Below, piece by piece: positions 1-20,531 of a stretch of 64,000 nucleotides of DNA. Source of the DNA: Cyanophora paradoxa CCMP329 (taxonomy: Eukaryota > Plantae > Glaucophyta); NCBI GenBank assembly GCA_004431415.1, contig QPMI01000477.1, positions 620,001-684,000 of the forward strand, in the 5' to 3' direction. Position numbers and translations under genes: made by a program. The notes beneath the pieces were generated by a model. The model was not told the origin of the DNA, did no database searches, and saw only the letters and a program-made list of their open reading frames with translations. Position 1 is the first letter of the stretch. Each line of letters begins with the position of its first letter.

Positions 1-1117
1 CTTGGGCAGGAAAGTCAGTTCAGGGACAGGGGTTCTGTCGTCCTTTCCAATTGTAACCATGCCTAGGCGCAGTGGGTCAAGAACCTTCTCCGAAATGGAC
101 TTGAAAGAAATGCCCCAATCATCTCCTTCAACAGGGTCTCGCCCATTCACCATCTTAAAGAGTCCGTTGTAAGACCAATCGATTCGCTTGTATTTCCCTT
201 TGGTCTTAGCCTTCTCAAACGCTCCTCCAAACCATTTGATGAGGACATCGAAAACACACTTCCCAACCTTGAATGAATCACCTTTCAAGAACATTTCCTT
301 GAATGTGGTGGCTTGGGGGTTCCCTTCGTTTTTAATGAAATTCGAAATAATCATTGGAGCGTTTGTATTGTCTCTGAGGACTTGTTCATTTCTTGGATGT
401 ATTCTTCATTATCTGTCGTGATGACTCTTTCAATTGTCATAATATCGGGTAGGTATCTTGCTCAATTAGTTTTAGGTAGCGGAAATCTTGATTGGTCGAG
501 TTAAACTCAATAACTGCTGCAATAAATTCAGCAATGACAGTCCCCTCAACACATGGGAACGTATTGAAGGTGGATTGAACCAGACCGAGAGCATTCAGAA
601 AAGCTGCCTTGGTACACTGGATACCAAAGGGGCGATTGTTCCGAAGCCTCTTCGATTCAATGTAGGTCACACCATTCTCAGTGACCCTGTTTGCATTTGC
701 AGGGGCTTGTTCTCCCTCTTGCAACTCACGGAAGAGTCTCACATTCAGGGTGACCATGTTTCCAGGTGAGTTTTCAACAAACTCACGGAGGTTAGCAATC
801 ATCTGCTGGAAAGGAGTCAAGCGCTTCCGCTCTCTCGCTTGCTCCGCTTTCTTGTTTTGCTTCTCAACATTCTTAGCGGCTCTCTCAGCCCTCTTCTCCT
901 TCTTCTCCTGCTTGCGATACAAACGAGGCTCTACGATACCTCTCAGTGTATCTCTGATATCAATCAACTTTGGAATTCTAATTGCTTTGAAAGTAAATTC
1001 TCTCAAGAAATAGATATCCTGCTCTCGGGTCAATTTGTCTTCTACTTTTGCTTGCATGTAGTAGCCAAGAATCTCATCCTGCAAATTTTTCGAAATTCGA
1101 TTACTTGGTCGAGGCAT
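1..1117 (-). CDS. Large hypothetical viral protein, N-terminal part (runs off window); possibly a replication protein
   Basis: ATG at 1117 (MPRPSNRISK) opens the ORF to 437. Open frames continue after two -1 shifts (~440 and ~360-400) to the window edge (MIISNFIKNEGNPQ...GKCVFDVLIKWF...WGISFKSISEKVLDPLRLG). It has the same upstream motifs as the 1616 gene. No diagnostic catalytic motif is visible. Confidence 0.5.
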
Positions 1118-1133
1118 TTCTTTGTTCACTCTA

Positions 1134-1189
1134 TTAATATATACCTACAAAAGTTTTCTTTAAATACTTTTATACTCGCGTCAAATTTT
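1134..1189 (-). promoter_or_regulatory. Putative viral promoter (AAAATTTGAC ... TATTTAAAGA ... ATATATTAA)
   Basis: The same three motifs occur in the same order upstream of both the 1117 and 1616 genes; the first resembles the mimivirus early element AAAATTGA. Confidence 0.5.
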
Positions 1190-1358
1190 ACCGACAAAAC
1201 CAAAAGTCTCCAACAAAATAAATTTAGTCGAGGGCATTCATAAAAATAACAAAGGGTTGGCTCGATCATCGAACTCTAAAAATAACAGAATGATTATATT
1301 TGTGGTTCCAGCGCGTTTCCCACGGGTTTCTCAGAGCAGATCGCGCTGAGAAAAACGA

Positions 1359-1616
1359 TTAACAGAGATATTTCGATTTGCGACCACGGTTAGAATACGG
1401 GACACCATAGAGATACTTCACAAAGCAGACTGCATTGGAAGCATAGAGACGCTGGGAACTCTCAACGATCTTCATGGCTCTGTAACACTCATCAGTATGG
1501 TATAAGTCACGCATTTGCTTTGCAAATCTGGCATTGTACTTTTTCAAATATTCCTGACCTTTTTCAGTTTTACGATAACGATAAGTAGCACGCTTCTGAG
1601 CCTCACTGATTGGCAT
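1359..1616 (-). CDS. Small basic viral protein (85 aa), possibly DNA-binding
   Basis: MPISEAQKRATYRYRKTEKG start, K/R/Y-rich; upstream motif set shared with the neighbouring gene. Confidence 0.65.
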   Translation of the reverse strand: MPISEAQKRATYRYRKTEKGQEYLKKYNARFAKQMRDLYHTDECYRAMKIVESSQRLYASNAVCFVKYLYGVPYSNRGRKSKYLC

Positions 1617-1635
1617 GTTGTCCTTTTCTACTCTC

Positions 1636-1706
1636 TTAATATATGTTAAGAAATCTTTAAGTAGTTTTTCTGTCTGTATATAGCGAATAAACTCCTGTCA
1701 AATTTT
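1636..1706 (-). promoter_or_regulatory. Putative viral promoter (AAAATTTGAC ... TACTTAAAGA ... ATATATTAA)
   Basis: Second copy of the motif triplet seen at 1134-1189. Confidence 0.5.
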
Positions 1707-1965
1707 GGTCCCGATTGCAGAGCATCCAGTACGAAAGAAGATGCTGGAAAAATGATAAAGCCACCGATACCCAGAAGGTTCACTTGTCGGCTGCAAGTTT
1801 CTACCACTGAACCCGGTAGAACAGGTGATTAAAGTGATTTACCTATGGATATTTCACTTCGCTCTACAACGCCTCCATAAAAATGAAGAAGTTTTGAGCC
1901 TACGGGATAGGATTGGTTACGTAGCGCTAACAATGTTTGAGAAATTATATTATTCAGATTGATCC

Positions 1966-2727
1966 TTAACGGCGATAACCGGGTCTTATACCAAGCTTGG
2001 CGAATCCAGAGACCATTGGGGCAGCATTTGGAATCGAGTTGACTGGATCAGCCTGCGAAGTGGCAACCCGAAGGATCGACTTATTGAGAACCGGCAAATC
2101 CGTTTTGTTGGAGTCTTGATACTCAATGGTCTTTGCAATCAATTCTGTAGGTGAGTCTTTTGCCACATGAACAGGTTCGGGAATAACTTCATGGGTTACT
2201 TCTGGTTTCTTCTCAACCTTTTCCTTTGTGATTGGCTGTTCCTTGATCTTGTTTTCGTTTTTGGTCTCTGCTGCAATACCATCAACAAGACTCTTAGCAT
2301 ACTGATATGTTACAGATTTCAGTCCACCAGTGGTTGAACGAATAAAGTAGCGGTTGCGATGGTCTTTCTCGGAATAGGTTGAGTAGAGTCGCTCACCACC
2401 ATCAAGCAGTTTCAGCAGTGTCGATGATGAGGCAACCTTGTCCTTTGTGGATGATTTGAACTGTCCTTTCTTGATTCCTCGTTTGGCTCCGGGCATGCGG
2501 TTCAGTGGGACTTGGTCAACAAGGGCATTATCATCATTACTGTTTTTCGTAGTGGCTTGGGTGAATTGGTTTCGTTCTTTATGGACTTCCTTTTCGAGGT
2601 CACCAGTTCCGTATGCAGCGAGTCCTTTCGATTTCTTATACCAGTTCCTTCCATTCTCACCATTGCCAACATCCGCTTCAGCGGCTGGTTTGGCTAAGAA
2701 ATTCTTGGGTTGAGTCTTGCGAGCCAT
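1966..2727 (-). CDS. Hypothetical Lys-rich viral protein (253 aa)
   Basis: Intact ATG ORF, co-directional with and 36 bp downstream of the penton-like gene. Confidence 0.7.
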   Translation of the reverse strand: MARKTQPKNFLAKPAAEADVGNGENGRNWYKKSKGLAAYGTGDLEKEVHKERNQFTQATTKNSNDDNALVDQVPLNRMPGAKRGIKKGQFKSSTKDKVASSSTLLKLLDGGERLYSTYSEKDHRNRYFIRSTTGGLKSVTYQYAKSLVDGIAAETKNENKIKEQPITKEKVEKKPEVTHEVIPEPVHVAKDSPTELIAKTIEYQDSNKTDLPVLNKSILRVATSQADPVNSIPNAAPMVSGFAKLGIRPGYRR

Positions 2728-2763
2728 TTGTAATATTGAAACAAATTTATTCTACAGTATTTC

Positions 2764-3651
2764 CTATGACCGTGAGAACGGCAGGTAGAGTCCCTCCAAC
2801 TCTTTTATGACATTCTTCAATGCTTTTTTCGTCAGATCTTTATCATCTTCAGTAATCAGTTCAAGAGTCATCGACCAGTCGGTAGTAATGTCTGCTGTGG
2901 CTCCATTCCAGTAAGAAAGTCTCACATCTAGAGTCTCAACCTCAACCAAGCCATTCTGCTCGTGAACGATCATGGAATTATTCGATGAATCATATTTTAA
3001 TAGACTGCCAACCGTTTGGTCAATCTCAATTTTCGCGATAGCATTGTTATCTCGTTTGTTATTGCTCACATATCTTCCTTTCAGTGGATCAACATGAAGA
3101 AGCAAATAGGAATTAAATAGTAGATCTAATGGCATTTCACTATCAATGTAGTGAGCATAAGTAAAGGCTCCAACTGTGACATTAGATGATAGAGGACTCG
3201 ATTGGTACAGTGTGTTAGCATTTTCAAAACCACAGAAATTGGCTAAGAGTTGAGTGTTCATAGTGATTGAGAATGGAACCTCACACATGAACCTTAGAAG
3301 CAATGTTGTGGGATCATAGGTTACATAGAAATGGCGAGTGTAAGTTCCGCCACCCGCTTGATTATAGGGCTGGGATCCAATGCGAGCGATCAGATAATTC
3401 ACCAGTGAATCCGGTGTATATGCACCTCGGAGGACTTCGTTGTTTCTATTCTTTGGGTTCCCAGCATTATCGAGTGTTTGTGTGGTGAGGGTTCCTACTT
3501 CAGAGAGGTTGTAAAGATTGTGAAACATCTCAAAGTTCGTTACTCGACAGGCTCTGACCTTTTGGATCGCATAAGGGAGTCTGTATGTGAAATTAGTTGG
3601 GGTTCCATCCGATCGGTCCCTGGAATCAATATTGAGATAGTAACGCGTCAT
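2764..3651 (-). CDS. Minor capsid (penton-like, single jelly-roll; DUF5901-type) protein
   Basis: N-terminal YLNIDSRDR...NFTYRLP, central YLLLHV and C-terminal LDVRLSYWNG...DWSMTLEL match the PLV/NCLDV minor capsid pattern; divergent from the MCP. Confidence 0.8.
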   Translation of the reverse strand: MTRYYLNIDSRDRSDGTPTNFTYRLPYAIQKVRACRVTNFEMFHNLYNLSEVGTLTTQTLDNAGNPKNRNNEVLRGAYTPDSLVNYLIARIGSQPYNQAGGGTYTRHFYVTYDPTTLLLRFMCEVPFSITMNTQLLANFCGFENANTLYQSSPLSSNVTVGAFTYAHYIDSEMPLDLLFNSYLLLHVDPLKGRYVSNNKRDNNAIAKIEIDQTVGSLLKYDSSNNSMIVHEQNGLVEVETLDVRLSYWNGATADITTDWSMTLELITEDDKDLTKKALKNVIKELEGLYLPFSRS

Positions 3652-3703
3652 TCTGTTTAATAAAGCATTTTAAAAATTTCTTTTGGTATTTTAAACATAA
3701 GAG

Positions 3704-4928
3704 ATGGCACTCACTGGAACTACCCTGAAGGAACTCCTCGTAACTCCCGGTTCCGATCAAATTTATCTTTCCCCTGGTCTCCAAATCGGAACCAACCCCA
3801 AATACAAACCATTCCTCGAGCAAGTTCGTCCCGGGGCAACACTTTTGGCTTCAAGAATACCGCTTACTTTGATCTACCTCGCAAGCAACTCCTTGCTGGT
3901 GTTTCGCTCTATTTCAAGATTGCCACTGGTGGTGGTGTAGCCTGCACCCTCCCCAATGGTGGTTCTTCTTTTATTAATGAGGTCCGTTTCGTTCATGGTG
4001 GTTTCAAGTATATTATCCCTGGTGATTGGATCACTGTAAACGCCCTGGTCGATAATGATCACGCTACCATGAGCAGCATGTATGCTTCTCTCGGTTACTT
4101 CAAAGAGACAGATCGTGAAAGCACAGATGAAGCAATGGAATACATCGTTAGAATCCCCGCTGCTTTCTGGAAGAAGCTTATTTCCCATTATGTACGCTAG
4201 CCGATATGCCAACAATCGAGGTTGATTTCCGTGATGCTGCGATTGTCCAAGTTCCGGCTGGTGGATCTGTAACCTTTGCGGATTGCTCTCTGATCTGCCA
4301 ATTCGTAAACATTGCTTCGGCTGAGGCTGAGACACTCCTTAAAATGGCGAACGAACAAGGTGGCATTCGCATCCCGATCACAGAGGTCATTCACAAGAAG
4401 ACCCGAGCGCTCAAAACCGCTGATGCTGGTGAATCTGTTGAGGTTACACTCGCTAATGTTTCTGGTCTGGTTCACTCGATTCTGATGACTGTTCGAGAGG
4501 TGAACAAACTTAACACCTACACTCACTCGGATTTCTGCGGTCATGAATCTGCTGTTAAGATTGATCAGTTCCAGATCTTCCACAACAATCGCTCCCTGGA
4601 TATATCTAACAAACCCATTTCCGGTTTCCTCTCTGCTGTCAATCACATTCCTTCTCACTACAAGGGTGTTACTGTGGGCAATACCACGTACGGATTCGAG
4701 TCTGGAAATGTTTACGGAATTGTTCTTTCCAAGTCTGGAAAAGATTCGCTTCGGAACTCGGTTATGGGTTACCAGGATTTCTTCAACAGCAGCTCGAGTT
4801 ACATGGATCTCACTGTTTCCGGATGCACTGATGCCGCTCCTGTTCAGGTTGATATCTATGCCCTCCGACACAATGTTATGGTACTTAATGGCTACAACAT
4901 CTCTACCCTGAAAGTCTCGAACTTCTAA
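3704..4928 (+). CDS. Double jelly-roll major capsid protein (~408 aa after restoring two single-base losses)
   Basis: The joined frames read FGFKNTAYFDLPRKQLLAGVSLYF, YIVRIPAAFWEEAYFPLCTL...IEVDF, NVYGIVLS and VDIYALRHNVMVL, which parallel NCLDV-type MCP motifs. Frameshifts fall in G runs at 3833-3836 and 4169-4170. Confidence 0.85.
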
Positions 4929-5008
4929 AGTTCTTTTCTTTTGTTAGTGTAGGAAGCGCAATTATTTGTAGGTGTGTACTTTATTTTGTTTTTTATCTTA
5001 TTACTGTA

Positions 5009-5767
5009 ATGGATAACACAGTAAATCTTGATGATATTCCGGAGTTCGATCCGAGTAAGACGGTTCGAATCCCGACAAGAATTTTGAATGTTGGTCGCTC
5101 CAATACAGGTAAGACAATGTTCACAAAATACTTACTTTACGAGCTTCGTGACAAGATCGATCAAATCGTTATATTTAGTTCAACAGCTTTTACTGGACAA
5201 TTCAATGACATCACCCATCCCGATAACATCTATGAAGAGTGGGATGATAACATTGTTTTGAGATTGATCAGTATGCAAAAGAAACGAATTGAGAATAACG
5301 AAAAGCGAAATAACCTAGTTATCATACTCGATGACATGATAGGTTCAAATTTGGATATGCATAATTCGGCTGTGTTATCTAAATTAGTAACGAGTGGAAG
5401 ACATTATTCAATCTCGGTAATCTTTAATGTTCAGCGTTTGTGTTCTATTTCTACTACCATTCGTCGCAATGTGGAGTTCGTTGTATTTTTCAATATTCTT
5501 GGGAACGAGAAAGAGTTCAATTGCGCCTTTGATGAGTACAATGGTGGTTTGGATAAGAAGACCTACAAGGAATTGCATAGACTATGGGGTTATAATTACC
5601 AAACTGTCATAGCTAGCCTGCAAGGTTATGATATCAAGACCTATACTGATAGAGCAGTACTCACTGATGATGATATAAAGGGCTTTAAGAAGTTTGTGAA
5701 GAGAAAAGCAATTAAAAGGAGTCAGATGGCTCGGATTCAGCGAGAAATGACCACAATCAGTGTGTAA
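5009..5767 (+). CDS. A32-like (FtsK/HerA superfamily) genome packaging ATPase
   Basis: Walker A GRSNTGKT, Walker B LVIILDD, and A32 signature TSGRHYSISVIFNVQ...IRRN. Confidence 0.92.
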   Translation: MDNTVNLDDIPEFDPSKTVRIPTRILNVGRSNTGKTMFTKYLLYELRDKIDQIVIFSSTAFTGQFNDITHPDNIYEEWDDNIVLRLISMQKKRIENNEKRNNLVIILDDMIGSNLDMHNSAVLSKLVTSGRHYSISVIFNVQRLCSISTTIRRNVEFVVFFNILGNEKEFNCAFDEYNGGLDKKTYKELHRLWGYNYQTVIASLQGYDIKTYTDRAVLTDDDIKGFKKFVKRKAIKRSQMARIQREMTTISV

Positions 5768-6011
5768 AAGGTCGATTTTTGAGAAATGTTGTATAATAAG
5801 GTAGCTTGAAATACTGTGGGGATTGCACAGTTGCGTAGAGCTTAAACAGCGCTTCAAACCGATATGCAGAACGTTGCGAGATCATAATCTGGTGATGAGA
5901 TACAAGCGTTTGAAGATGCCGATAATCGATTTACCGAAACTTCGGTGAAACGTGAGCGAAACTTGAACCGTGAGATCATATACCCTACTATGGTTTATTC
6001 CCCGGGTTTTC

Positions 6012-6095
6012 ATGGCGCATTTAATGGCGCATTTAATGGCGCATTTAATGGCGCATTTTATGGCGCATTTTATGGCGCATTTTATGGCGCATTTG
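6012..6095. repeat. 12-bp tandem repeat ATGGCGCATTT(A/T) x7
   Basis: Directly visible. Confidence 0.95.
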
Positions 6096-6157
6096 ATGAA
6101 AAGTCCCTACTCTGTGGCATGAACCAATCAGAAGCCAGCAAATTTAAAATTAATATA

Positions 6158-6260
6158 TGAGGTATTATCTGAGATATAATCTGAGGTATTATCTGAGATA
6201 TAATCTGAGGTATTATCTGAGGTATTATCTGAGGTATTATCTGAGATGTTATCTGTGATA
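6158..6260. repeat. 12-bp tandem repeat TGAG(G/A)TAT(T/A)ATC x~8
   Basis: Directly visible. Confidence 0.9.
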
Positions 6261-6703
6261 TAAACCTGGGGAGAAGTTGAAGGGGGATACAACAAAACAA
6301 GTAGCACACCAATCAGATTGCGTCACACATATATACATATACATCATGACAATATACACATCGCCGTGATCGTCATGATCTCCCGAATAAGCCGGTGTGT
6401 CATATATATCAGATACATATACATCATCATCATGACGTCATATATGAATATATATCACATATACACAAATTGATATGTTATAGGTTTGACTATAAATCGA
6501 TTTCCTATGATATATATGATATATATTACAGTGATATATTGACGTATATACGATTCAAAAACAATTAAAATTCTATTGTTTTTATTGTCGTTTCTATTGT
6601 TGTTTCTAGTGTAACAAATACAGTAAAAAATCGTTCAAAAAATACAGTAAAAAATGAGAGGTTTTCTTTCGAGGTTTTAACTAAACTTACTTAGTTATTC
6701 ATG

Positions 6704-7092
6704 GGAGACACGGCGGATGAAAAGGATATAACTTCGATTAAATATAATTAATCGAGATTATGATATAACTTCGATAAATAAGATTTAAGATATAACTTCG
6801 ATTAATTCGATTTTTGTTACTGAGGCTTACTGAGATTTAGTGAGATTTGGAATTGGGTTACTGTGAATGGTTTGTTTTTCTTGGGAATTGTTTTGGAGAC
6901 ACGGCGCATAAAAAAGATATAACTTCGATAAGATATAATTAATCGAGATTATGATATAACTTCGATTAATTCAATGTTTCTTACTGAGGCTTACTGAGAT
7001 TTACTGATATTCAAGATTGGGTTACTGGGAATGGTTTGTTTTCTGATTTGTTTTTGATTTTTTCGCGGGTATTTTTTTGGAGACACGGCGCA
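6704..7092. repeat. Two ~190-bp direct repeats delimited by three GGAGACACGGCG copies; putative terminal region of element A
   Basis: GGAGACACGGCG at 6704, 6895 and 7079; each unit has GATATAACTTCGAT sub-repeats and TTACTGAGGCTTACTGAGATTT. Confidence 0.9.
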
Positions 7093-7393
7093 GTGCTGAG
7101 CTCCCAATGCAAAGATTGTGGAGTATGTAGGTCTGAGATCGAAACTCTATGCTTTCAGAACTGAGACCTTTGATAAAATAAAGATGTCTGGGACTTCCTC
7201 AAAAGAGGTTCACTTTGATGATTTCAAAAGATGCCTGTTTGAAGGCATCACCAAAACAGTAGCAGTAGTAAACAAGCGAAGGCAAGACCACAACCTATAT
7301 GATTTGGAGAGCAGAAGGGTGGCTCTAAACCAACTCGATAGCAAAAGGAAGATATTAGACGATGGAATTCACAGCATTCCATTTGGGCTCTAA
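7093..7393 (+). pseudogene. 5'-truncated protein-primed DNA polymerase B (C-terminal ~100 aa)
   Basis: (AEL)PNAKIVEYVGLRSKLYAF...FDDFKRCLF...HNLY...VALNQLDSKRKILDDGIHSIPFG is the typical Polinton pPolB C-terminus. There is no ATG, and the upstream DNA is non-coding repeat. Confidence 0.88.
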
Positions 7394-7551
7394 TCTACTT
7401 CATCAATCTTTCTTTTTCTTTGGTTTCGCTCTCCAAGAAGTAACAAACCGCGAATTAAATGCAGCAGCCATATACATCTTAATCCTGGATCATTGGGCTC
7501 AATTGCAAAGTAGTTTGGAATTGTGTTCTCCTTCCACACAGACTCTTGCAT
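7390..7551 (-). CDS. Small hypothetical protein (53 aa), not in ORF track
   Basis: MQESVWKENTIPNYFAIEPNDPGLRCIWLLHLIRGLLLLGERNQRKRKIDEVD; fills the gap between pPolB and integrase, its stop overlaps the pPolB stop, A-rich start context, RKRK motif. Confidence 0.5.
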   Translation of the reverse strand: MQESVWKENTIPNYFAIEPNDPGLRCIWLLHLIRGLLLLGERNQRKRKIDEVD

Positions 7552-7576
7552 TTATTATATGAGAGATAAGGTAAAG

Positions 7577-8977
7577 ATGCCTTCTACACAAATAGGATTG
7601 AGACAACCACCAAGAATTGTGAGAAAAGAGGCAATTGAAGATCGAGGGAATATCCTGCCCATCACAGTTCCAGTGGAGGAGAAGAGCAGTCGAATATTAA
7701 AAAGATCAGAGATGGTCAAGCAATTAATCCCAGAGACACTCCCAGCTGAGACAGCACCAAAAGAGTCAAAGATTGCTAAGAAGTTCTATGATCCCAGGAC
7801 AGGCTACAAGGGATTTACTGCAATGAGACAGGAACTACCAGAGGAGAACTACAAGAAAATGAGAGAATGGTATGATAAGCAGGAGGTTGTCCAAATTAAT
7901 GCACCTACCCTATCTCGAAAGAGAGATCCCATGATTCCAATTAGGCAACCCCTTGATACATATGTGATTGATCTGCTCTTGTTTCCTGCATACAAAAAGC
8001 AGAATGATGGTTATGATACATTTATGAGTGCAATGGAATCAACCCTAAGAACTGGGTTCATCATTCCAATGAGAGACAAGAGTGCTCTTACTACACTTGC
8101 AGCATTCAAGCAACTTGAACAGAGAGTCCCCAGACCAATTGTTCGCATTCAGAGTGATAGTGGAAGCGAATTTACCAATGTCTTATTCACAGATTATTTG
8201 GGAACGAAATTCATTGAGCATCAACTAAGTGATGTTGCAGATCACAGAACCCAAGGTCGGATTGAAGCCTTTAACAGACAGATCAAGAGATTAATCACAA
8301 ACTACTGCATTGCAAATAATACTGCACGATTTTTTGATGTGTTGGGTGATATTGAGTATAATTATAATAATACCATCCACTCTGCAACCAAGAGAAAACC
8401 AGCAGAGACCACAGAAGCCCACTACAAAGAGATAGTGAATATGGAGGATCAGAGATTCAAGAAATCGATTGAGTATCTTGATGCTCTGAAACCTGGAATG
8501 TTTGTGAGAGTGAAAGTTGAAAAGAATCCATTTGCAAAGCAGGGTGTTAATTGGTCTCGAATTGTTTATAGTGTGGAGGGCAGAGAGGGCTTCAAATTCA
8601 GAATCAGAAGTCCCAGTGGTGAGATAGTTGATGGTAGATTCGCTTTTCATGAACTGCTTCCCATTAAAGGTGTTGAGTATCATGAAACTCCCACAGTGGA
8701 TGCCCTTGAACAGGCAAAAGAGGAAGCCAGGGTTGATTCAGCAATCAGAAAGGAGGGCATAGAAAAAGCAAGTGAAGTTCCAAAAGAACCCCTCACAGAA
8801 GCAAGAGCACAAAAGAAGGGCAGAGTAGAGAAAGAGTTGAAGAAGTTGACCATAGCAGGAACCCAGAAATTATCAGAAGTTAACAGTCAGAGATGGTATA
8901 ATGACTTTTCAACCACCAAGGAAACATATACTGCACCCCAAACTCGATTTAATTTACGAAGTGGTCAGAGGAAATAG
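7577..8977 (+). CDS. Retroviral-like (rve) DDE integrase, Polinton c-integrase type
   Basis: Catalytic VIDL, IQSDSGSEF and IEAFNRQIK; YNNTIHSATKRKP; C-terminal GMFVRV...NWSRIVYSV. Start set at GTAAAG-ATG (7577). Confidence 0.93.
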   Translation: MPSTQIGLRQPPRIVRKEAIEDRGNILPITVPVEEKSSRILKRSEMVKQLIPETLPAETAPKESKIAKKFYDPRTGYKGFTAMRQELPEENYKKMREWYDKQEVVQINAPTLSRKRDPMIPIRQPLDTYVIDLLLFPAYKKQNDGYDTFMSAMESTLRTGFIIPMRDKSALTTLAAFKQLEQRVPRPIVRIQSDSGSEFTNVLFTDYLGTKFIEHQLSDVADHRTQGRIEAFNRQIKRLITNYCIANNTARFFDVLGDIEYNYNNTIHSATKRKPAETTEAHYKEIVNMEDQRFKKSIEYLDALKPGMFVRVKVEKNPFAKQGVNWSRIVYSVEGREGFKFRIRSPSGEIVDGRFAFHELLPIKGVEYHETPTVDALEQAKEEARVDSAIRKEGIEKASEVPKEPLTEARAQKKGRVEKELKKLTIAGTQKLSEVNSQRWYNDFSTTKETYTAPQTRFNLRSGQRK

Positions 8978-8978
8978 A

Positions 8979-9221
8979 TTAACAACGCTTTCGGAATCTC
9001 TTAGACCTCTGGCGAATTTTCCTCATTTGTCTATCTTTTTCAATAATTTCCAAGAAGAAAGTTTCAAGATTTGAAACCAGTTGGTAATTATAAACAAAGA
9101 ACAGTCTCACATGCTCTGGCTGTGACATGAAGAAATTGTAATAGAAAGCAGTTTTGAAATCATGGATCCAGTCTGATTGGGCAGCATGGATGATAGCAGG
9201 GTCTTGGTAGATGGGATCCAT
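8979..9221 (-). CDS. Small hypothetical protein (80 aa) with basic C-terminus
   Basis: ATG at 9221 (MDPIYQDP), convergent with the integrase, ends RKIRQRSKRFRKRC. Confidence 0.55.
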   Translation of the reverse strand: MDPIYQDPAIIHAAQSDWIHDFKTAFYYNFFMSQPEHVRLFFVYNYQLVSNLETFFLEIIEKDRQMRKIRQRSKRFRKRC

Positions 9222-9387
9222 AGCAGAAGTTGAGAGAATCCAGAAAATCCTTGGCAATTTTTTATTTTGTTAGTGCCCGATCTCGACGAAACCTGATAGC
9301 TGCTGCCGAGAGGATTCCGAATCTGCTTTCAGAATTGAAAACGGAGCAGTTGGTAATAAAATACATATGTATGACCGAGATTGATGG

Positions 9388-9488
9388 AGTTTCAGTGATG
9401 TTTCGGTGAAGTTTCGGTGCGAAGTTTCGGTGAAGTTTCGGTGTGAAGTTTCGGTGAAGTTTCGGTGAAGTTTCGGTGAAGTTTCGGT
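9388..9488. repeat. 11-13-bp tandem repeat GAAGTTTCGGT x~9
   Basis: Directly visible. Confidence 0.93.
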
Positions 9489-9516
9489 CAATAGGATAAT
9501 TCTATAAATCGAAAAA

Positions 9517-9719
9517 TGGTTGCGCGTCATCGCAACCATCATCGCAACCATGGTTGCATCATCGCAACCATCATCGCAACCATGGTTGCATCATCGCAAC
9601 CAGGTCGCGCAACCACTCAATCGGGAAAAAAATGGTTGCGCAACCACTGAATCGGAAAAAAATTGGTTGCGCAACCAGGTTGCGCAACCAGCGCAACCAT
9701 GGTTGCATCATCGCAACCG
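9517..9719. repeat. Array of direct and inverted GCAACCA/TGGTTGC motifs (TCATCGCAACCA units, TGGTTGCGCAACCA palindromes)
   Basis: Directly visible. Confidence 0.9.
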
Positions 9720-9983
9720 TCGGCATCTTCAAACGCTCGTATCTCACCACCAGATCATCAGATCGTGACCGTCGACATAGCGCTGGAAAGCGCTTGAAAA
9801 GATCTACACGATGGTGTAGGTATCAAGTATATATACGTATAGATTACATACAAATATTTCGAAAAAACGATTAATCGGCTACTTTCTACTGTAAGGAACA
9901 TACAGTAAAATAATGCGAAAATACAGTAGCTACTGTTAAAAAAGCCATAATCTGGCGCACCATACATCAGAAGTCCTGATGTA

Positions 9984-11525
9984 TCATACACTTCGAATAA
10001 ATGCACCTGTCACATCCACTCTCATAGTTGGGGCATTTATATATACCAGTGGATAAATACGAATATACCTTGTCCTCAGAGGGTAGCCAATATAGAAAAC
10101 GTCTCTAATAGAGGTGGGAAACCCAGAACTGTATGAGACATCACCACTATTGTGGGCATTATTAATGGTTTCACACATGAACACTCTATTCACACCTTCA
10201 TACTTGATAAATGACCAGGAAACACCATCTTGTGATGTTGCAACATTGAAGGTCTTAACAAAGGCATTGGTCACACCAGAACCATATGCAATTATAGATG
10301 CTATCTCAAATATATATGGGAAGGATACTTGGAGATACTCAGTGGGAACACTCCATATCCCATCAGGAGCAGATGCATTTGCCTCCCAACCTGTTAAAGA
10401 AGGTCTTGCTTTAAATGCCTCCCTTCCAATTTTCGATGATGAAGCAGTGAATGCACCATCTGACAGAAGATACCAGTTAGCATCAATGGGAGGTATATTA
10501 TTCAGAGTGGATGATATATAGAACCTTGCAGGGTTCTTGATTTCGTAATTTGCAACCAGTAAATCACAGAGTCTATCAATCATTACTGTGTTTGCTGCTA
10601 TATACATTTCGGTTGCATCTATCATATCAGGGATCTTAGAGGTATCATCCAGAGAGTTTACTATGGTCTTTGGAAGTGGAACAGAGAGTCTATAATATCT
10701 TGCATATCCTTGGTCATCATTATATGGGAGAAACTCTTGCATCTTTTCCAGGGCTGAGAGTTCACTTGCAGCCATCAACATATTAATTAATGGACTCCCA
10801 GAGGTCGAAGCAATCCATGAGAGAATGCCCCAGCTGTTGACATCTTCATAGGAATATCCCACATTTGGGGCATCTGTTTCATTGACCTCACCACAGGATA
10901 TACTGATCACAATTATATCATCATCATCATCATAGATCTTTTTAGCATGGCTGTAACCACATACACTGGGATTGTTGTTACCTGATATTGCACCATCAAT
11001 TAGAGACATCCCATCATAGTTCACAGGTGAGAAGTAAGTAGGTGCAGCAGAGGTGGATCTTGCAGCAATCTTGCTGGGGATGGATTTGTAGGAATTATCA
11101 TTGGTGATAAAGATGGGCTTCATACTCACAGTATCAAAACTTGTGATCACCACATCTTTTAGAGAGTCTTGAATCAGTGACTCACCAGTAACAGTGAGAA
11201 TGGCTGTCTCCAATGGGGTCACATCATACTTGGTGTTGAAAAGGGCATTATCTATAATATTTCTGGGATTTGCAAAGATTAATGGAAGTTGATTGAGATA
11301 TGTTGAATGCAAATCGGTAGCAGTGAGTTTGGGTTCGTTTGGAAATTCGAGATTTTTCACATTGAGACCAATCGCAATAATCCCACCAGTGGATGTTCCA
11401 CTCACCAGGTCAACAAGGTCTATTACTCTTTTTCCAGTTCGAGTTTCGATTTCTTTTAGCAATCTCGTAATAATTATACCACGAGCTCCCCCACCTGAGA
11501 GACTGAGAATTACACGAAGGGGCAT
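9984..11525 (-). CDS. Patatin-like phospholipase fused to a C-terminal F5/8 type C (discoidin) domain
   Basis: LSLSGGGARG, GTSTGG nucleophile, STSAAPTYF, IDGA. C-terminal FTASSS, EYLQVSF, VKTFNVATSQDGVSW, RTRYIRIYP and MRVDVTG. Start set at GTAAAG-ATG (11525). Confidence 0.9.
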   Translation of the reverse strand: MPLRVILSLSGGGARGIIITRLLKEIETRTGKRVIDLVDLVSGTSTGGIIAIGLNVKNLEFPNEPKLTATDLHSTYLNQLPLIFANPRNIIDNALFNTKYDVTPLETAILTVTGESLIQDSLKDVVITSFDTVSMKPIFITNDNSYKSIPSKIAARSTSAAPTYFSPVNYDGMSLIDGAISGNNNPSVCGYSHAKKIYDDDDDIIVISISCGEVNETDAPNVGYSYEDVNSWGILSWIASTSGSPLINMLMAASELSALEKMQEFLPYNDDQGYARYYRLSVPLPKTIVNSLDDTSKIPDMIDATEMYIAANTVMIDRLCDLLVANYEIKNPARFYISSTLNNIPPIDANWYLLSDGAFTASSSKIGREAFKARPSLTGWEANASAPDGIWSVPTEYLQVSFPYIFEIASIIAYGSGVTNAFVKTFNVATSQDGVSWSFIKYEGVNRVFMCETINNAHNSGDVSYSSGFPTSIRDVFYIGYPLRTRYIRIYPLVYINAPTMRVDVTGAFIRSV

Positions 11526-11574
11526 CTTTACTTTACTCAAATTTAATAAATCTCTATAAGTAGAGTAAACAGGG

Positions 11575-14500
11575 ATGAGTTTCAATTATCCAGCAAACCT
11601 GCAAACCATTCCTTCATCAGGAAGAGGGAAGGCAGATAACAAACATGTAAATTTCGATAACTTGACAGCCAGAGGGTCAATCTCAATCGACCATAGTGCA
11701 GATGAACCCTCAAAGACTCACCCAAGAATGCATGCACTTTCAATAAACGAAATGGATCCTGAAAAAGAGGATGTGAGTGTTGCTTTCAGCATGGGGAATG
11801 TGAAATCGAATCAGGTAGCCCAGATTGAAGCAACCAGGAGCAGACCAAGAAAACTGAAAACCAGTGGAACCCATCCAGATATTCCAACTCGATTCGATAG
11901 TGGAAGGTTGATATTCAATGTTCAAAATGAGAAGGGTGGGCATCAGAGTGGTTTAAGAATCTATAATGAAGGATCAAATGCAATTGCACAAATTCCCGAA
12001 ATATTACAGATAGCACCCCATGGAGAGACCAACAAAATCGAGTTCACTAACAATGTTTATCCACGAGATATTGTGGCGAATTCGGCTTCTAATGCGCAAT
12101 TCGGTTTCCAACTACCAAGTGATACAGCAAAGAATAAGGCGTCTATCACTGTCAACAGTAGCCCCACTCAACCAGTAACAATTCATTTACATCCAGACCT
12201 TGTCGAAATGGATAGGCACCTTTTACCTCTGGTAACTAATACCAAAGATCTTGGTATCAGAACCAGGCAATGGCGAAATATCCATGGAAGCAATGTCTAT
12301 GCAAATGGAGAGAAACTTGTAAGTGAGAAGACCATAAGAGAGATCTTTGAATATTATGGACCTGTCCCAGTTCCCTTTCCTCTTCCATGGGATCCACCAG
12401 ATTTAACACCAAAAAAGCAACCAGGAAGAGAATACACAGCAGATGAGACAGTTCCCTTTGGGCAGCACATTGTGAGTTGGGAGCAGGTTCGAAATAAACC
12501 TATAATTGAACCGAGAAAGCAAATAGATGAGCAATATTTACCACCTGAAATCGATATTTTGGAGCTTGACGAATACCAATTCGTTCCAGATGAGGAGGAA
12601 TACCTACCTGATGGTTTCGACCCACAGGAGTATGAATATGATCAATATGACCCCAATGAGGAAGAGTATTTACCAGATGGTTTAGATCCACAAGAGTATG
12701 AATATGAGCAGAATTATGAACCCCATGAGGAATATTTAGCAGATGGTCACGAACCACCAGTTGTTGATTATGAGCAACCATATGAACCCCATGAAGAATT
12801 ATTACCAGATGGATTTCGACCTGAGATTTGGGAATTCTTCCCTGATTGGGAGCAGATCAACAATAAACCAGCCAGATTTCCACCAGAGGATCACAACCAT
12901 GACTGGGATGAGATCTTAGGTAAACCAGACAAATTCCCACCAGAGGATCACAGGCATGATTGGGGTGATATTGATGGAAAACCAGAAAAGTTCCCACCAG
13001 AAGACCATTTGCATATTTGGAGTGAAATACGAGAACAACCCACTTTTGCATCAGCAGGTAATGTATTATTAGGAGATATTAACAATGGTGTGAGTCTCTA
13101 TCAAAATATAGACACACCAGCAAGATTACAATTAAATGATTACTATGTGAATCGAAAGGGAATAGATGCAGGCACCACAATGGAAGGCGAATTATACATT
13201 AGACCCCCTACAAGAAATGGAATATTGGGACTTGGTGGTGGTATTGAAATTAAAGACACCAAACCAGGTATCTATCTTACCAGCTACTATGCAGATGACA
13301 TCCCAATGACAGGGGGTTTATTTTCTCTACCATCTGATCCAGCAAACTATGATGATAAAAACGCTGCAATCCAAATTAATGTTACTGATGTGAGTGATTT
13401 AGATTCATCAAGACCGAAATTAATATTCAGCAGAGAGAGATTGTTACCAGATGCACTTTTGGGGAACCGAGATGACTATAAACAATGCGAGGTTGCATGG
13501 ATCAAAACGAATTATAATGGTGGAGTTGGTGAGGGAGTTTTAGAAATCAATCAGAGGGCAGCAGCAAAGAATATTCACAATGAGACCATATCAAGAGTGG
13601 TAACAGAGGATTACCTTCAAGCCCAAAACTACATAGATGAAACAGAACTGAATACAATTATTGCAGGTATTAATATTGGTGTGACAGGGGATTACCTTCC
13701 TCTCACAGGAGGGATTATTGATGGAACAGTGACAGCATGCAACTTCTTTGTCCATACTGAAAGCAATCAAACCTTCCCTGTTGTCCATCCAGGAGGTGAG
13801 TATGAGATACCTGATGATCCAGCTATTATGCCCATTAAGATTGATCTCCCTTCTGATTATGTTGGAAGGGGTGAACTCAAAATCATCTCTTTCACAGGAG
13901 ATTATAATGATCTCACTAATAAACCCACCCCATCTAATCTACACCCTGTTGCATATTCAGGTAGCTTCCTTGATCTGAATAATCGAGCACACACCCACAC
14001 AAAGGCAGAGATCACAGATTTCGCACACACTCACACAAAATCCCAGATTACAGATTTTGCACACTTCCACACCAGAGCAGATATTACTAATTTTGCTCAC
14101 ACTCATGTTAAATCAGAGATTTTAGATCTCGGAAATGTTGCATATGTTGGTCACACCCATACCAAGGCAGAGATTACAGATCTTGGAAATGTTGCATATG
14201 TAGGTCACACCCACACTAAGGCAGAGATTACAGATTTTGCACATACTCATGATTGGAATACAGATATTTATAACAAACCAGCGATTTTCTCGGGCAACTA
14301 CAATGATCTGACCAATAAACCCACCCTTGATCCCTTTACAGCAAATAATATCACTGCAAATGCAAACCTTCTCATTGGATCAGGTTACTTTCTCGATTAT
14401 GACCCATATATTATGCCTGATCCTCCTGTTATTTGGAATTTCCACAATTCAACCCTTTCTACTAACTCTATATCTTACTATCAGGATAAAACACTCCTTG

Positions 14501-14892
14501 TTCGTGGTAATGCATATGCAAGAGAAATGTGGGTCATGGATCCTCGGGACAACTCCAAGGTGACTAAGTTAGCACCCCAATACATGCTTGATAACCTGAT
14601 TAGAAAAGGGAGACATGAAATGACAATTGCAAATCCTCAAATTGGGGGCAGTTCAGCAAGGCAAAACCATACCATTACATTAAATTGGAGTCCTGCCTTT
14701 GCATCTGCTCCATCTGTTGTTGTTACATTGCAGGGACTACCTGCAACAAATGTGGAAATCGATTATAAAATAGGAATATCAAGCAACTCAACAACCTCTA
14801 CCACAATCAATCTTGTTATTTGGGCAGCAGGATGGGTAACCATTCAACCACAGTGGCTTCAAATTGCAATTCATTGGATAGCAACAGCATAA
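11575..14892 (+). CDS. Large phage-tail-fibre-like virion fibre protein (1105 aa)
   Basis: HTHTKAEITD(F/L) x~7, FPPEDHxHxW...GKP x3, G(D/N)YNDLTNKP x2, acidic EEYLPDG repeats, P...DLG...QWRNI motif, and lectin-like tip FASAPSVVVT...IHWIATA. Confidence 0.82.
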   Translation: MSFNYPANLQTIPSSGRGKADNKHVNFDNLTARGSISIDHSADEPSKTHPRMHALSINEMDPEKEDVSVAFSMGNVKSNQVAQIEATRSRPRKLKTSGTHPDIPTRFDSGRLIFNVQNEKGGHQSGLRIYNEGSNAIAQIPEILQIAPHGETNKIEFTNNVYPRDIVANSASNAQFGFQLPSDTAKNKASITVNSSPTQPVTIHLHPDLVEMDRHLLPLVTNTKDLGIRTRQWRNIHGSNVYANGEKLVSEKTIREIFEYYGPVPVPFPLPWDPPDLTPKKQPGREYTADETVPFGQHIVSWEQVRNKPIIEPRKQIDEQYLPPEIDILELDEYQFVPDEEEYLPDGFDPQEYEYDQYDPNEEEYLPDGLDPQEYEYEQNYEPHEEYLADGHEPPVVDYEQPYEPHEELLPDGFRPEIWEFFPDWEQINNKPARFPPEDHNHDWDEILGKPDKFPPEDHRHDWGDIDGKPEKFPPEDHLHIWSEIREQPTFASAGNVLLGDINNGVSLYQNIDTPARLQLNDYYVNRKGIDAGTTMEGELYIRPPTRNGILGLGGGIEIKDTKPGIYLTSYYADDIPMTGGLFSLPSDPANYDDKNAAIQINVTDVSDLDSSRPKLIFSRERLLPDALLGNRDDYKQCEVAWIKTNYNGGVGEGVLEINQRAAAKNIHNETISRVVTEDYLQAQNYIDETELNTIIAGINIGVTGDYLPLTGGIIDGTVTACNFFVHTESNQTFPVVHPGGEYEIPDDPAIMPIKIDLPSDYVGRGELKIISFTGDYNDLTNKPTPSNLHPVAYSGSFLDLNNRAHTHTKAEITDFAHTHTKSQITDFAHFHTRADITNFAHTHVKSEILDLGNVAYVGHTHTKAEITDLGNVAYVGHTHTKAEITDFAHTHDWNTDIYNKPAIFSGNYNDLTNKPTLDPFTANNITANANLLIGSGYFLDYDPYIMPDPPVIWNFHNSTLSTNSISYYQDKTLLVRGNAYAREMWVMDPRDNSKVTKLAPQYMLDNLIRKGRHEMTIANPQIGGSSARQNHTITLNWSPAFASAPSVVVTLQGLPATNVEIDYKIGISSNSTTSTTINLVIWAAGWVTIQPQWLQIAIHWIATA

Positions 14893-14917
14893 TTAAGATT
14901 CTCACACTATTACAAAG

Positions 14918-15985
14918 ATGACCTCTCTATTAGAAATCCCAAACTATGAACTTGCCGCCAAATCATTACATAGCACCTCCCATGAAGTAGTCGACTCTAC
15001 GCCCGGTTTTATTTGCACTGAAACTACAAGCAATACCTCTTTCACAGAGAATAATATACTGAGAGTCAAAGAAATTCGATGTGATCGCAATAATGGTAAG
15101 ATAAGAACCACAGGTATTATTATCTCGAATACAAATCAAGTCCAATCAGGTCAGGTAGTCCCGGATTCAGCAATATATGATAATGTGGGTGGAGTCACCA
15201 CAGCACAGATAGTGACTTTTGGGAACACAAGCAATAATTCCGCTCTTGTAGTCAAGAGTGGAGGAGCCTACATTGGAGATGGAGCAAATGTAGCAGGAAC
15301 TGTCACAGCAAATCAACTATCTGTGAGTGGGACAAGTAGTTTTGGTGGGTATATGAATTTCAATGGTGGGCTTTCAGGGAATATTCAGTATGGAACACTC
15401 ACACTTTCCACAAGAATAAACACACCTGAGATTGACAACATGAGTGACACAGTCATGAATTACAAGAGGAATGGGGACACCATCTTTTCTCTTCAAAAAA
15501 CAACTCAAATAGATAACACAACTGTTCAACATCTCACACTTCCGACAAGCAAATATCTCAAATTAAGTAGCCATCCTCGTTTCTTTGCAACAAAACAGCA
15601 ACCAAATGGGTCAATAACTGCAACAATTTCCTCAATAAATATATATCCAACAACAGGAGTCATAGTGAACCAAGGAAATCATTTCGATCCTGCGACAGGG
15701 CTTTTTACTGCCCCTGTTACAGGAAACTATCTTGTCACATTTAGTGGATCCTGTTATTGGACTGGAAGAACAACTAATATTGTTACATTTTTACAGAAAA
15801 ACGGAAGCTCATCTGGAATTGAAGTTAATACTAATTATGCATCTGCATATGCAAACAATGGGTTCGAAATTATTGTAGACCTTCAAGCCAATGATTCCAT
15901 CAGAATATCATATAATAGCAGTGGTGGAGGTTCTATATATTATAATATCAGATGGTTCTTTGGATGCATGCTTGTCCATTCATAA
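14918..15985 (+). CDS. Fibre paralogue 1: shared N-terminal module plus C1q-like head
   Basis: C-terminal HPRFFA...NQGNHFDPATGLFTAPVTGNYLVTF...VDLQANDSI...FFGCMLV is a C1q domain. Confidence 0.85.
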   Translation: MTSLLEIPNYELAAKSLHSTSHEVVDSTPGFICTETTSNTSFTENNILRVKEIRCDRNNGKIRTTGIIISNTNQVQSGQVVPDSAIYDNVGGVTTAQIVTFGNTSNNSALVVKSGGAYIGDGANVAGTVTANQLSVSGTSSFGGYMNFNGGLSGNIQYGTLTLSTRINTPEIDNMSDTVMNYKRNGDTIFSLQKTTQIDNTTVQHLTLPTSKYLKLSSHPRFFATKQQPNGSITATISSINIYPTTGVIVNQGNHFDPATGLFTAPVTGNYLVTFSGSCYWTGRTTNIVTFLQKNGSSSGIEVNTNYASAYANNGFEIIVDLQANDSIRISYNSSGGGSIYYNIRWFFGCMLVHS

Positions 15986-16007
15986 TATTGTCTACATAAT
16001 ATAAAGT

Positions 16008-17027
16008 ATGACCACTCAAATAGCTGTTCCTGTGTTCTGTTATGCTGCCCCGAAATTACATCAACTCAACCACACAGTAACAGATGCAACCCCTGGGTTT
16101 ATTTGCACTGAAACAACAGGTGCCGATTCGTTTTCTCAAAACTCTGTGATCAGATGCAAAGAAATTCGATGTGATCGCAATGGGGGCAAGGTGAGAACCA
16201 CAGGTTTAATTGTCTCCAATAAGAACCAAGTCCAATCAGGTGAGATTGTTTCTGATTCCACAATATATGATGATGTAGGAGGGTTCACCACACCCAAAAT
16301 AGTAACCTTTGACAACACAATTAATAACTCTGCTCTTGTTGTGAGAAGTGGAGGAGCTTACATTGGAGATGGGGCAAGGGTTGATGGAACCCTAACAGCA
16401 AATCAGGTAAGTATTACAGGAACAAGCACCTTTACAGGATTGGTAACAGCAAATGCTGGTATTTCACTACCAATTGCCTCACAATCCATAATCACAGCAA
16501 CAAACAAGGTTGTCACACCAGAAATCGATACAGGAGCCAATGTAGACCTTCTTCTCAAACGAAATAGTAACACTGTCGCTACTCTGGAAGCGAATAGTTT
16601 GACAGTTAATACAGGGTGTTATCTCAAAACATCACATCCACGATTTTCAGTTCAACTTGGCTACAATCACACTGCTACAACTTCTGCTGATCTCATAAAC
16701 TGGGCAACAGTTCGAGTAAACAATACCAATTCATTCAGCACATCAACTGGAAGGTTCACAGCACCTGTTGCAGGACACTATCGATTTTCAGTATTCACTT
16801 CTTCAACCACAACTTCTGCTATTGAATTGTTTCTCAGGGTAAACAATGCAGATCCAGGGGGATTGAGCATTTCCCAAGTTCACAATCTGTCAACAACAAA
16901 TAAAGCGCTGTGTTTCTCTTGCATTCTCAATCTTGCCCAAAACGAATTTGTTACACTTGTTACAAATTCAGTCGGTTCATATGCAAGTAGCACAGCATTC
17001 TCAGGAGAATTAATAAGCATCGTTTAA
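16008..17027 (+). CDS. Fibre paralogue 2: shared N-terminal module plus C1q-like head
   Basis: HPRFSV...NNTNSFSTSTGRFTAPVAGHYRFSV...LNLAQNEFV...FSGELI; the first ~140 aa are highly similar to paralogue 1. Confidence 0.85.
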   Translation: MTTQIAVPVFCYAAPKLHQLNHTVTDATPGFICTETTGADSFSQNSVIRCKEIRCDRNGGKVRTTGLIVSNKNQVQSGEIVSDSTIYDDVGGFTTPKIVTFDNTINNSALVVRSGGAYIGDGARVDGTLTANQVSITGTSTFTGLVTANAGISLPIASQSIITATNKVVTPEIDTGANVDLLLKRNSNTVATLEANSLTVNTGCYLKTSHPRFSVQLGYNHTATTSADLINWATVRVNNTNSFSTSTGRFTAPVAGHYRFSVFTSSTTTSAIELFLRVNNADPGGLSISQVHNLSTTNKALCFSCILNLAQNEFVTLVTNSVGSYASSTAFSGELISIV

Positions 17028-17049
17028 TTTTCTTATGGTAGTTTAGGAA

Positions 17050-17316
17050 ATGTCGAATATATACCAAGTGGTTCTATCTGATATAGAAAAGTTGGGAATG
17101 GAATATTGCTGCGCATCTGTTCAGGACTGGATTGATAATGCTGCCCACAACAGGGCAAGAATCGCAATTGATGAGATTGTTCAGAAAGAGATCCAATCTT
17201 GCATCTCATCAGGAGTTCAGATACCAACCTCAAAGGAAGCCATTGTGTTACAGGCATTCCAAAGGGGAACTGTAAAGAAAGGCATCGAGTATAACAATGT
17301 CACAGAAGAGCAATGA
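17050..17316 (+). CDS. Small phage-type protein accompanying C1q fibres (possible fibre chaperone)
   Basis: QDWIDNAAHNRARIAIDEIV...VLQAFQRGTVK; I recall this motif from small marine-phage proteins encoded beside C1q-domain genes (recollection, not searched). Confidence 0.65.
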   Translation: MSNIYQVVLSDIEKLGMEYCCASVQDWIDNAAHNRARIAIDEIVQKEIQSCISSGVQIPTSKEAIVLQAFQRGTVKKGIEYNNVTEEQ

Positions 17317-17351
17317 ACATTATTTTTCTATCCTTCTTAGTAAAAGAAGCA

Positions 17352-18197
17352 ATGGGTGAATACAATCGAGTTCAACTGCCTATATATTCCCTTGGATCCC
17401 CTGCAATGCATTTTCGCCAGCATGAAGTAAATGATGAGGTTCGTGGTTTAGAATCCACAGAGAGACCCAATTCCAATGGTAACTCCTTTGATAAGAACTC
17501 AATTATTCGAGTTAAAGAACTGAGAGCAGACAAGAATTCTGGGGTTGTTAAAACAACTCGACTCCTTGTCTCAAATGCGAACTTCTTCCAACCAACTAAT
17601 GGAGGTCCTGATGCTTACAGTGTTGATCTGAAAGCCCTCGATTTCGATAAGAATTCTGCTGCTGTAACTGTGAGATCAGGTGGAGCATTTATTGGTGGTG
17701 GTTGCAGAGTTTCAGGTCAACTCTCCTCATCAATTGCATACAATGATGTCCCAGATACTCTTGAACAGAATGTTGAAGACCCCCAACGAATTCGATTATA
17801 TATACCAGTTGCACAACAGCCACTTATTCAATTTTACCAAGGTTATACTGTCACACTTGAAAACTCTGAATTGATTGAAGGAACCAAAAGAGTAATGAGA
17901 GGGCTGGTCATTCCTTCTGCAATGCTTTCTTTATGTAGAGCCAACAATAACCAGCCAGGTCACAGATACAATTTCAGTGTTCAAGGATATGATCATTTCG
18001 GCACAGGGTTCTGTGTTTATAATAACAATTTCACCTATGATCTGTTTGTTACAGATATTGGAAAATATACAATTACAGTTATGGGTATCAGAACAGATAT
18101 AGCTGCTGTCTCAGCTCTAAGAGGTGTTACTCCTGATACTCTTTCTCAAACAGGGTTTTACCAGGAACCAGATGTGATTGATAACCCAACCCCATAA
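17352..18197 (+). CDS. Fibre paralogue 3: shared N-terminal module plus non-C1q head
   Basis: IRVKELRADKNSGVVKTTRLLVSN and VRSGGAFIGGG align with paralogues 1, 2 and 4; the C-terminus (..DP.RIR.Y.P...V.GIRTD) aligns with paralogue 4. Confidence 0.78.
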   Translation: MGEYNRVQLPIYSLGSPAMHFRQHEVNDEVRGLESTERPNSNGNSFDKNSIIRVKELRADKNSGVVKTTRLLVSNANFFQPTNGGPDAYSVDLKALDFDKNSAAVTVRSGGAFIGGGCRVSGQLSSSIAYNDVPDTLEQNVEDPQRIRLYIPVAQQPLIQFYQGYTVTLENSELIEGTKRVMRGLVIPSAMLSLCRANNNQPGHRYNFSVQGYDHFGTGFCVYNNNFTYDLFVTDIGKYTITVMGIRTDIAAVSALRGVTPDTLSQTGFYQEPDVIDNPTP

Positions 18198-18220
18198 ATT
18201 ATATATCACTTTAATGTAAA

Positions 18221-19048
18221 ATGGCTGCCCCAGTAGAGCGAATTATTACACCCCAGCTATCATTAGCAGCACCTGCAAATCACGTTTTGCAGCATGCTAC
18301 TTTTGATGATGTAGAAGGTCTCCAATCCACAGAAGTCCAACCTACCATGAATACTTTTGGTTCCACCCACAAACTGAGATTGCAGGAACTCAGATGTGAT
18401 AAAAATAATGGTATAGTTAAGACAACGAAACTCCTTGTCACAAATGCAAACTTTTCTGCCCATTATGGAGACCCAGACAGTTATGGTGATCCTCTTTCTA
18501 CTTACTCTTTTGAATCTCGGTCGGGAGCTATTAACTGCAAAACGGGGGGAGCATATATTGGTGATGGTCTTCGGATTGGTGGAGCTGTTGGTGCGCCTCT
18601 TTTCGTAAATGATCAACCCAATCCCATTGATCCCAACACCAGAATTCGCACCTATGTCCCCAGCATGAATGCACCATATATTATCAAGATCTTCCCAATT
18701 GTTGTGAATGAACAGACATCAGTAGTTGATTCTCTTGTTGAGATTGGTGACCACTACAAGGTGGTCGTAGATATTCCACCAGATGTTTATGCTGTCTGTC
18801 AAGTAGAGGGTGGAACCCCAAATATTGCAGTTGTGATCACCCCATATGACAATTTCGGAATTGCTTATCATGGAGTGAATTTCGGTCTTGAAGATTACCA
18901 GTTCTTGGTGAGAGCCACCAGGTTTGGTATCTACAAATGCATTCTCTATGCTGAGAGAACCGATGCTATTGCAAGACAGAATACATATGCAGAATATTAC
19001 GGCACAAATCGCTACTTCCCCATTTTCGGGCAGGATACTGCTCCATAG
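18221..19048 (+). CDS. Fibre paralogue 4: shared N-terminal module plus non-C1q head
   Basis: LRLQELRCDKNNGIVKTTKLLVTN, KTGGAYIGDG; the C-terminal DQPNPIDP...VDIPP...VVITP...LYAERTD pattern resembles phage fibre C-terminal domains. Confidence 0.78.
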   Translation: MAAPVERIITPQLSLAAPANHVLQHATFDDVEGLQSTEVQPTMNTFGSTHKLRLQELRCDKNNGIVKTTKLLVTNANFSAHYGDPDSYGDPLSTYSFESRSGAINCKTGGAYIGDGLRIGGAVGAPLFVNDQPNPIDPNTRIRTYVPSMNAPYIIKIFPIVVNEQTSVVDSLVEIGDHYKVVVDIPPDVYAVCQVEGGTPNIAVVITPYDNFGIAYHGVNFGLEDYQFLVRATRFGIYKCILYAERTDAIARQNTYAEYYGTNRYFPIFGQDTAP

Positions 19049-19073
19049 AAATCTCAGGTATATATAGAGAGGG

Positions 19074-19492: not shown

Positions 19493-19532
19493 TCTACCAA
19501 TCGCGTTTTTAATTTTTCTTATTTATTCATAA

Positions 19533-20472: not shown

Positions 20473-20531
20473 ATATCATTTGAATACTACCTGTCACACT
20501 TGATCTCAATTATTCTGTTTTATAGAACATA

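Follow-up and report, generated by a model that had tools for sequence, protein, structure and literature searches.

Nesting of Polinton-like viruses (PLVs) and virophages has already been described in other single-celled eukaryotes. In Halocafeteria seosinensis, five PLVs and nine virophages are reported to be nested in other viral elements (bioRxiv 10.64898/2026.07.28.741278). Ngaro and other retrotransposons are described as sitting inside EMALE virophages and PLVs of cryptophytes, with one Ngaro located in a gene whose product is a protein-primed DNA polymerase of family B (pPolB) (PMC8547959, PMC12220804). The same two papers report retrotransposons that break viral genes in Cafeteria and cryptophytes and use counts to show that Ngaro prefers viral DNA. 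A possible PLV hotspot is mentioned for Tetraselmis (PMC9356565), and PMC10945749 gave no match to nesting terms. Polinton/Maverick elements, as summarized in PMC8097293, combine pPolB with a retroviral-type (rve) integrase and TIRs, are flanked by a 6-bp target-site duplication (TSD), and have ends of the AG//CT and AC//GT types.

The window analyzed here is the whole stretch of 64,000 nucleotides, in which virus-like, AT-rich DNA (GC about 0.40) occupies positions 1-21204 and GC-rich host sequence (GC 0.65, CpG o/e 1.18) follows from 21205 on. The host is likely a unicellular eukaryote, as we infer; a domain scan of host ORFs gave no clade. The host sequence includes a very large gene region on the minus strand (about 38500-64000, and 44341-45817), which carries Ig-like (Big_1, invasin D3) and PKD domains as well as a 42-bp array of 33 copies. 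The virus-like DNA consists of two elements, A on the left and B on the right, which meet at 7102/7103 inside the pPolB gene of B. The best reading of this junction is probably a nested, integrase-made insertion of A into that gene, and A in B would be a further example of the nesting outlined above. The initial annotation had also proposed this insertion. The proposal stands on the mobile end of A and on the continuity of pPolB in sister copies; the arguments from a CA end and from a particular duplication fall away.

As in the Halocafeteria cases, a viral element appears to lie within a viral element, and rve integrases, pPolB, and terminal palindromes adjacent to element ends are involved. 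The present locus differs in being one case that is mapped to the base and falls inside pPolB. Palindromes in that preprint prefer replication genes other than pPolB, whereas B appears to have both pPolB and a terminal palindrome. The disruption of a core viral gene by an insertion recalls the reported Ngaro cases, but at this locus a DNA virus-like element would be what invaded. Like Polintons and Mavericks, B has pPolB beside an rve integrase, and the CT end of A and the putative T(GT)2 end of B resemble the AG//CT and AC//GT ends, respectively, although the full repeated 6-bp motif given in PMC8097293 is in neither end. B further differs from Mavericks in its lipase, C1q fiber, and SAM-decarboxylase genes, which are typical of protist PLVs.

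The visible coding part of A spans 1-5767 (CpG o/e 0.82, GC 0.42), and its left part lies outside the window. An ORF on the minus strand at 2764-3651, which we take from its motif and position to encode a minor capsid protein, gave no match in Pfam, phage, PDB, or IMG/VR searches. Three overlapping frames on the plus strand at 3704-4928 presumably represent the major capsid gene; they gave no match in Pfam, phage, PDB, or word-indexed protein searches, and a single-sequence structural model of the putative protein was uninformative (pLDDT 33). Two frameshifts in this putative gene reflect decay or assembly error, so this assembly or this copy of A is not clean. An A32-like packaging ATPase is encoded at 5009-5767 on the plus strand (Pfam Pox_A32, E 1.6e-15). 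This ATPase and a fixed terminus at many insertion sites are PLV traits that A shows. No integrase gene was found within the visible part of A (1-7102).

Public sequencing data were used to locate the end of A. A run search with 3500-11500 listed 24 runs under a single organism label. In 19 of the listed runs, half or more of the sampled words were present (0.64-0.69); the 20 runs with a match correspond to 17 studies and two rows without a study, and no RNA run was listed as a match in this search. Four public runs, all in the form of assembled contigs, were compared with the window, which may itself derive from one of these runs.

The right terminal region of A (5768-7102) is noncoding and is likely a TIR or the outer part of a TIR. 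It contains 12-bp arrays at 6008-6098 and 6154-6255 and repeats of about 190 bp at 6704-7092, and it is covered in all four runs. The two units of about 190 bp are 75% alike across 194 columns, and the sequence GGAGACACGGCG occurs in them three times, at 6704, 6895, and 7079. The region varies in length: in many sister copies the 12-bp arrays, or a portion of one 190-bp unit, are missing, with deletion joints at 5922-6165, 5927-6360, 5945-6352, and 6665-6814. A high-depth contig of 36-37 bases (7066/7067-7102) stops at 7102 in the three of four runs that list it, with summed depths of 2233 in run X1, 1729 in X12, and 35 in X18. Among contigs compared over 7035-7165, loose ends follow 7102-7106 in all four runs. 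At least five unrelated flanks come after A, two at 7102 and one each at 7103, 7104, and 7106, and four of them are at least 255 bases long. The flanks placed at 7103, 7104, and 7106 are those that begin with C by chance, as the window does. One flanked contig has a depth of 54 in X1 and 28 in X12; a sixth copy of A breaks off at 7095. Element A ends ...GCAGTGCTGAGCT at 7102, a mobile terminus next to many different flanks.

This end revises several details of the initial annotation, in which the repeats stopped at a CA at 7092 and the bases that follow read directly as pPolB. The three copies of GGAGACACGGCG, the lack of a start codon, and the C-terminal pPolB sequence are borne out. However, A ends at 7102, and its last 10 bases (7093-7102, plus strand, ...AGCT), which include an in-frame TGA at 7097-7099, belong to its terminus and not to the polymerase. 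The CA at 7091-7092 is internal, 10 bases away from that end, and cannot serve as the sign of integrase chemistry it was taken for, the end being ...CT at 7102. The proposed duplication GTGCT/GTGCTG fails as well. GTGCT is part of A's own end, and since A runs to 7102 within its own sequence, GTGCT(G) is not a TSD.

Polymerase sequence begins at 7103, and the T at 7102 fits either A or B. The C-terminal 96 codons of pPolB, the last tenth of the gene, occupy 7103-7393 on the plus strand, in an ORF that has no start codon and in which the TGA precedes the polymerase residues. These 96 residues have no Pfam match of their own, and a word-indexed protein search returned no relative. An index-free search, in contrast, recovered 502 related proteins at E<=0.001. 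Among the best 150 of these 502, the median distance from the last matched residue to the C-terminus is 9 residues, and 24 proteins have lengths of 900 aa or more, with the match close to the C-terminal end. When 23 of the 24 long relatives were scanned, PF03175 DNA_pol_B_2 was found in seven, endonuclease VII in four, and both in one, with no domain match at 1e-5 in the other 13. The C-terminal matches to long proteins, together with DNA_pol_B_2 in some of them, identify 7103-7393 as the tail of a Polinton-type pPolB.

The same gene is intact in sister copies. Contigs of two to three polymerase variants enter the window at 7102/7106 in all four runs, and their letters upstream differ from those of the window. 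Translated by hand, these loose ends read ...IPGKYKNE, whereas the fragment in the window starts PNAKIVEYVGLRSKLY. The pattern G-x-[FMWLY]-K-x-E is found at the place of the junction in 92 of 122 relatives with usable upstream sequence. The pPolB of B runs uninterrupted across 7102/7103 in sister copies in all four runs, and 1-21204 is therefore not one genome. Sister copies in which 1-21204 is contiguous, which the initial annotation had named as contrary evidence, did not occur: A ends meet many flanks, and pPolB runs upstream.

The window matches polymerase variant 1 at 58 of 58 bases (X1, X12, and X18). Variant 1 and the end of A have one base in common, which leaves no homology for recombination or for an overlap mis-join. 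A join by microhomology would be possible with a second variant, which agrees at about 9 of 10 positions with the last bases of A followed by CCC, although the sequence of the window is that of variant 1. The exact mobile end of A thus adjoins, without homology at the join, an internal point of a gene found whole in sister copies. In X1 and X12, the depth of A ends and that of uninterrupted pPolB are each 41-64 times that of one flanked contig, a rough ratio only.

Downstream of the polymerase tail, an open frame at 7577-8977 on the plus strand encodes an rve integrase. Its Pfam rve match (E 0.003) is below the cut-off, and its PHROG transposase match has an E of 2.2e-11. The one integrase homologue found, P0001, is 70% identical and groups with rve clusters at 0.97; no other close relatives were found. 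B thus shows two Polinton/PLV traits, the protein-primed family-B polymerase as a tail and the rve integrase by a weak Pfam match, the PHROG match, and P0001. A CpG-rich internal spacer with palindromic arrays follows at 9270-9983. A third element beginning near 9361, where ACATATGT looks like the end of B, was considered and rejected, as one high-depth contig in run X8 runs across this position. Within 9984-19934 are open, CpG-poor frames for a patatin lipase plus an F5/8 domain, a long fiber-like protein, two C1q-domain proteins, two further fiber-like ORFs, a zinc-finger ORF, and a SAM decarboxylase-like ORF. No Pfam match to a capsid module (MCP, minor capsid, ATPase) was found among the 11 ORFs of 7100-19934.

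B appears to end in a 95-nt palindrome with 46-nt arms at 21110-21204 (z -12.6), which finishes ...ATGTGT. The GC content jumps from 0.33 to 0.65 at this putative end, into host DNA. The palindrome is closed by GCGAAGC, an unusually stable DNA mini-hairpin. The putative end, ...T(GT)2 at the GC jump, resembles the AC-type Maverick ends described in PMC8097293. A pair of palindromic blocks related to each other (20016-20138, z -8.9) lies in the subterminal region (19984-20813), which also has a 72-bp array of 3.7 copies. In comparisons of the window with the main contigs, 16 of the 17 listed differences in pPolB and the integrase are synonymous (167 further rows exist), as are six of nine among the listed rows for patatin. 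Because nearly all of the listed pPolB and integrase differences are synonymous, selection was acting on B, and the copy in the window is not riddled with errors. B was thus a working family member, and the break in its pPolB looks recent.

A and B differ in composition. The difference in CpG context noted in the initial annotation is confirmed, with 36.1 CpG per kb in the ORFs of A versus 13.1 in those of B (p about 1e-21), whereas the GpC control gives 39.2 versus 33.7 (p 0.09). The best composition change point lies at 7090 (2-unit interval 6970-7500), and none of 2000 random placements reached its score. The two sides also differ in their use of Arg codons and in GC3, as do the end motifs, ...CT in A and ...T(GT)2 in B. 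The genes of B (7103-19934) are CpG-poor (o/e 0.22-0.55) compared with the host (1.18), and this CpG avoidance is likely an inherited lineage trait rather than decay of this copy. The two elements share about 150 bp of inverted homology, between 5772-5922 in A and about 9720-9870 in the spacer of B (75% over the best 88 bp), and short tandem arrays follow each copy. This stretch could be a cis element common to both or else a small ORF. An Rfam search found no family for it and gave only sub-threshold miRNA hairpin matches. No relatives were found in IMG/VR, JGI metagenomes, phages, or PDB sequences.

In the mechanism that we propose, a retroviral-type integrase would have inserted A into the pPolB gene of B, with the right end of A at 7102/7103. 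The rve integrase, whether A's own or supplied in trans, would have linked this end to DNA cut with a stagger, and a duplication of 5-6 bp, CCCAA(T), is predicted on both sides of A. Its right copy, positioned from the end of A, would be 7103-7108 on the plus strand. A 6-bp TSD is reported to go with rve integrases (PMC12220804, PMC8097293). The rest of pPolB and the capsid module of B would lie to the left of A, outside the window. In family-B polymerases, the KxY motif and the thumb are located in the C-terminal part. The split would take both from the 5' part of pPolB, so this copy of B, unable to make its own replicase, would depend for its replication on sister copies acting in trans. The insertion would thus have disabled replication of this copy.

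A one-ended or secondary event could also have joined the end of A to pPolB, by an integrase-made adjacent deletion or by recombination with a neighboring copy. In that case no matching duplication would exist, and the 5' part of B would have been lost or would lie at another place. Only a single end of A is visible in the window, deletion variants of its terminal region are common (one copy breaks at 7095), and the inverted element of about 150 bp common to A and B could recombine. However, the join falls exactly at the terminal base of A, and the frames of B to the right are open, with differences that are nearly all synonymous. We regard such an event as unlikely, although it survives better than the other alternatives.

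An assembly chimera of two high-copy repeats, arising from a chimeric read or a mis-join, is slightly less likely again. Both sides are high-copy by the rough depth ratio, artifacts in such elements are documented in PMC10120064, and the putative capsid gene of A contains frameshifts. A mis-join requires overlap, however, and only one base is shared; moreover, a random chimera is not expected at a terminal base. No contig bridging 7102/7103 was found in any of the four runs, and other contigs account in full for the summed depth at 7105-7129. This result was counted neither for nor against the insertion, since Logan contigs are described as collapsing minor variants (10.1101/2024.07.30.605881). 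The window's private B alleles are likewise missing at many listed places in the same contigs. Clean-up may not fully explain the missing bridge, because some low-depth bubbles of 60 bp were retained, and the insertion may be absent from the sampled lines. The idea of a single mosaic virus genome that spans 1-21204, is passed on as one unit, and keeps a vestige of a polymerase as its tail would fit the restriction of capsid-type genes to the left and of integrase, lipase, and fibers to the right, as well as the module exchange reported among PLVs (bioRxiv 10.64898/2026.07.28.741278), but it is very improbable and largely refuted as a many-copy form, because all depth at 7110-7129 belongs to contigs that continue into upstream pPolB in all four runs, A ends lead to unrelated flanks, the CpG break is sharp, and neither end has an inverted repeat within 1-21204.

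Under the favored nested insertion, the simplest account of the site is chance or a weak preference for AT-rich viral DNA rather than targeting. The genome contains dozens of B copies, each longer than 14 kb, so that a single hit in pPolB would need no targeting. The PLV-on-PLV targeting or hotspot suggested in the initial annotation has no support from one event. Four of six other A-flank heads were searched in the window, with zero matches; insertions into repeats would be under-represented among long flanks, and the result is hence uninformative. It is very unlikely, in our estimate, that A integrates preferentially into B, with pPolB hit above chance, so as to disable and ride a co-resident rival that combines pPolB with a hairpin end, the element of about 150 bp acting as a common cis signal. 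Competition of this kind among PLVs was not found in literature searches on nesting and integration.

The base-mapped junction pins down the terminus of A, an undescribed family of high copy number that is almost without relatives in the databases searched. Dozens of copies of A and B are present in many sequenced samples, which makes insertion preference between co-resident PLVs directly countable. If A does prove to hit B, or its pPolB, beyond target size, this would represent competition between endogenous viruses by targeted insertion.
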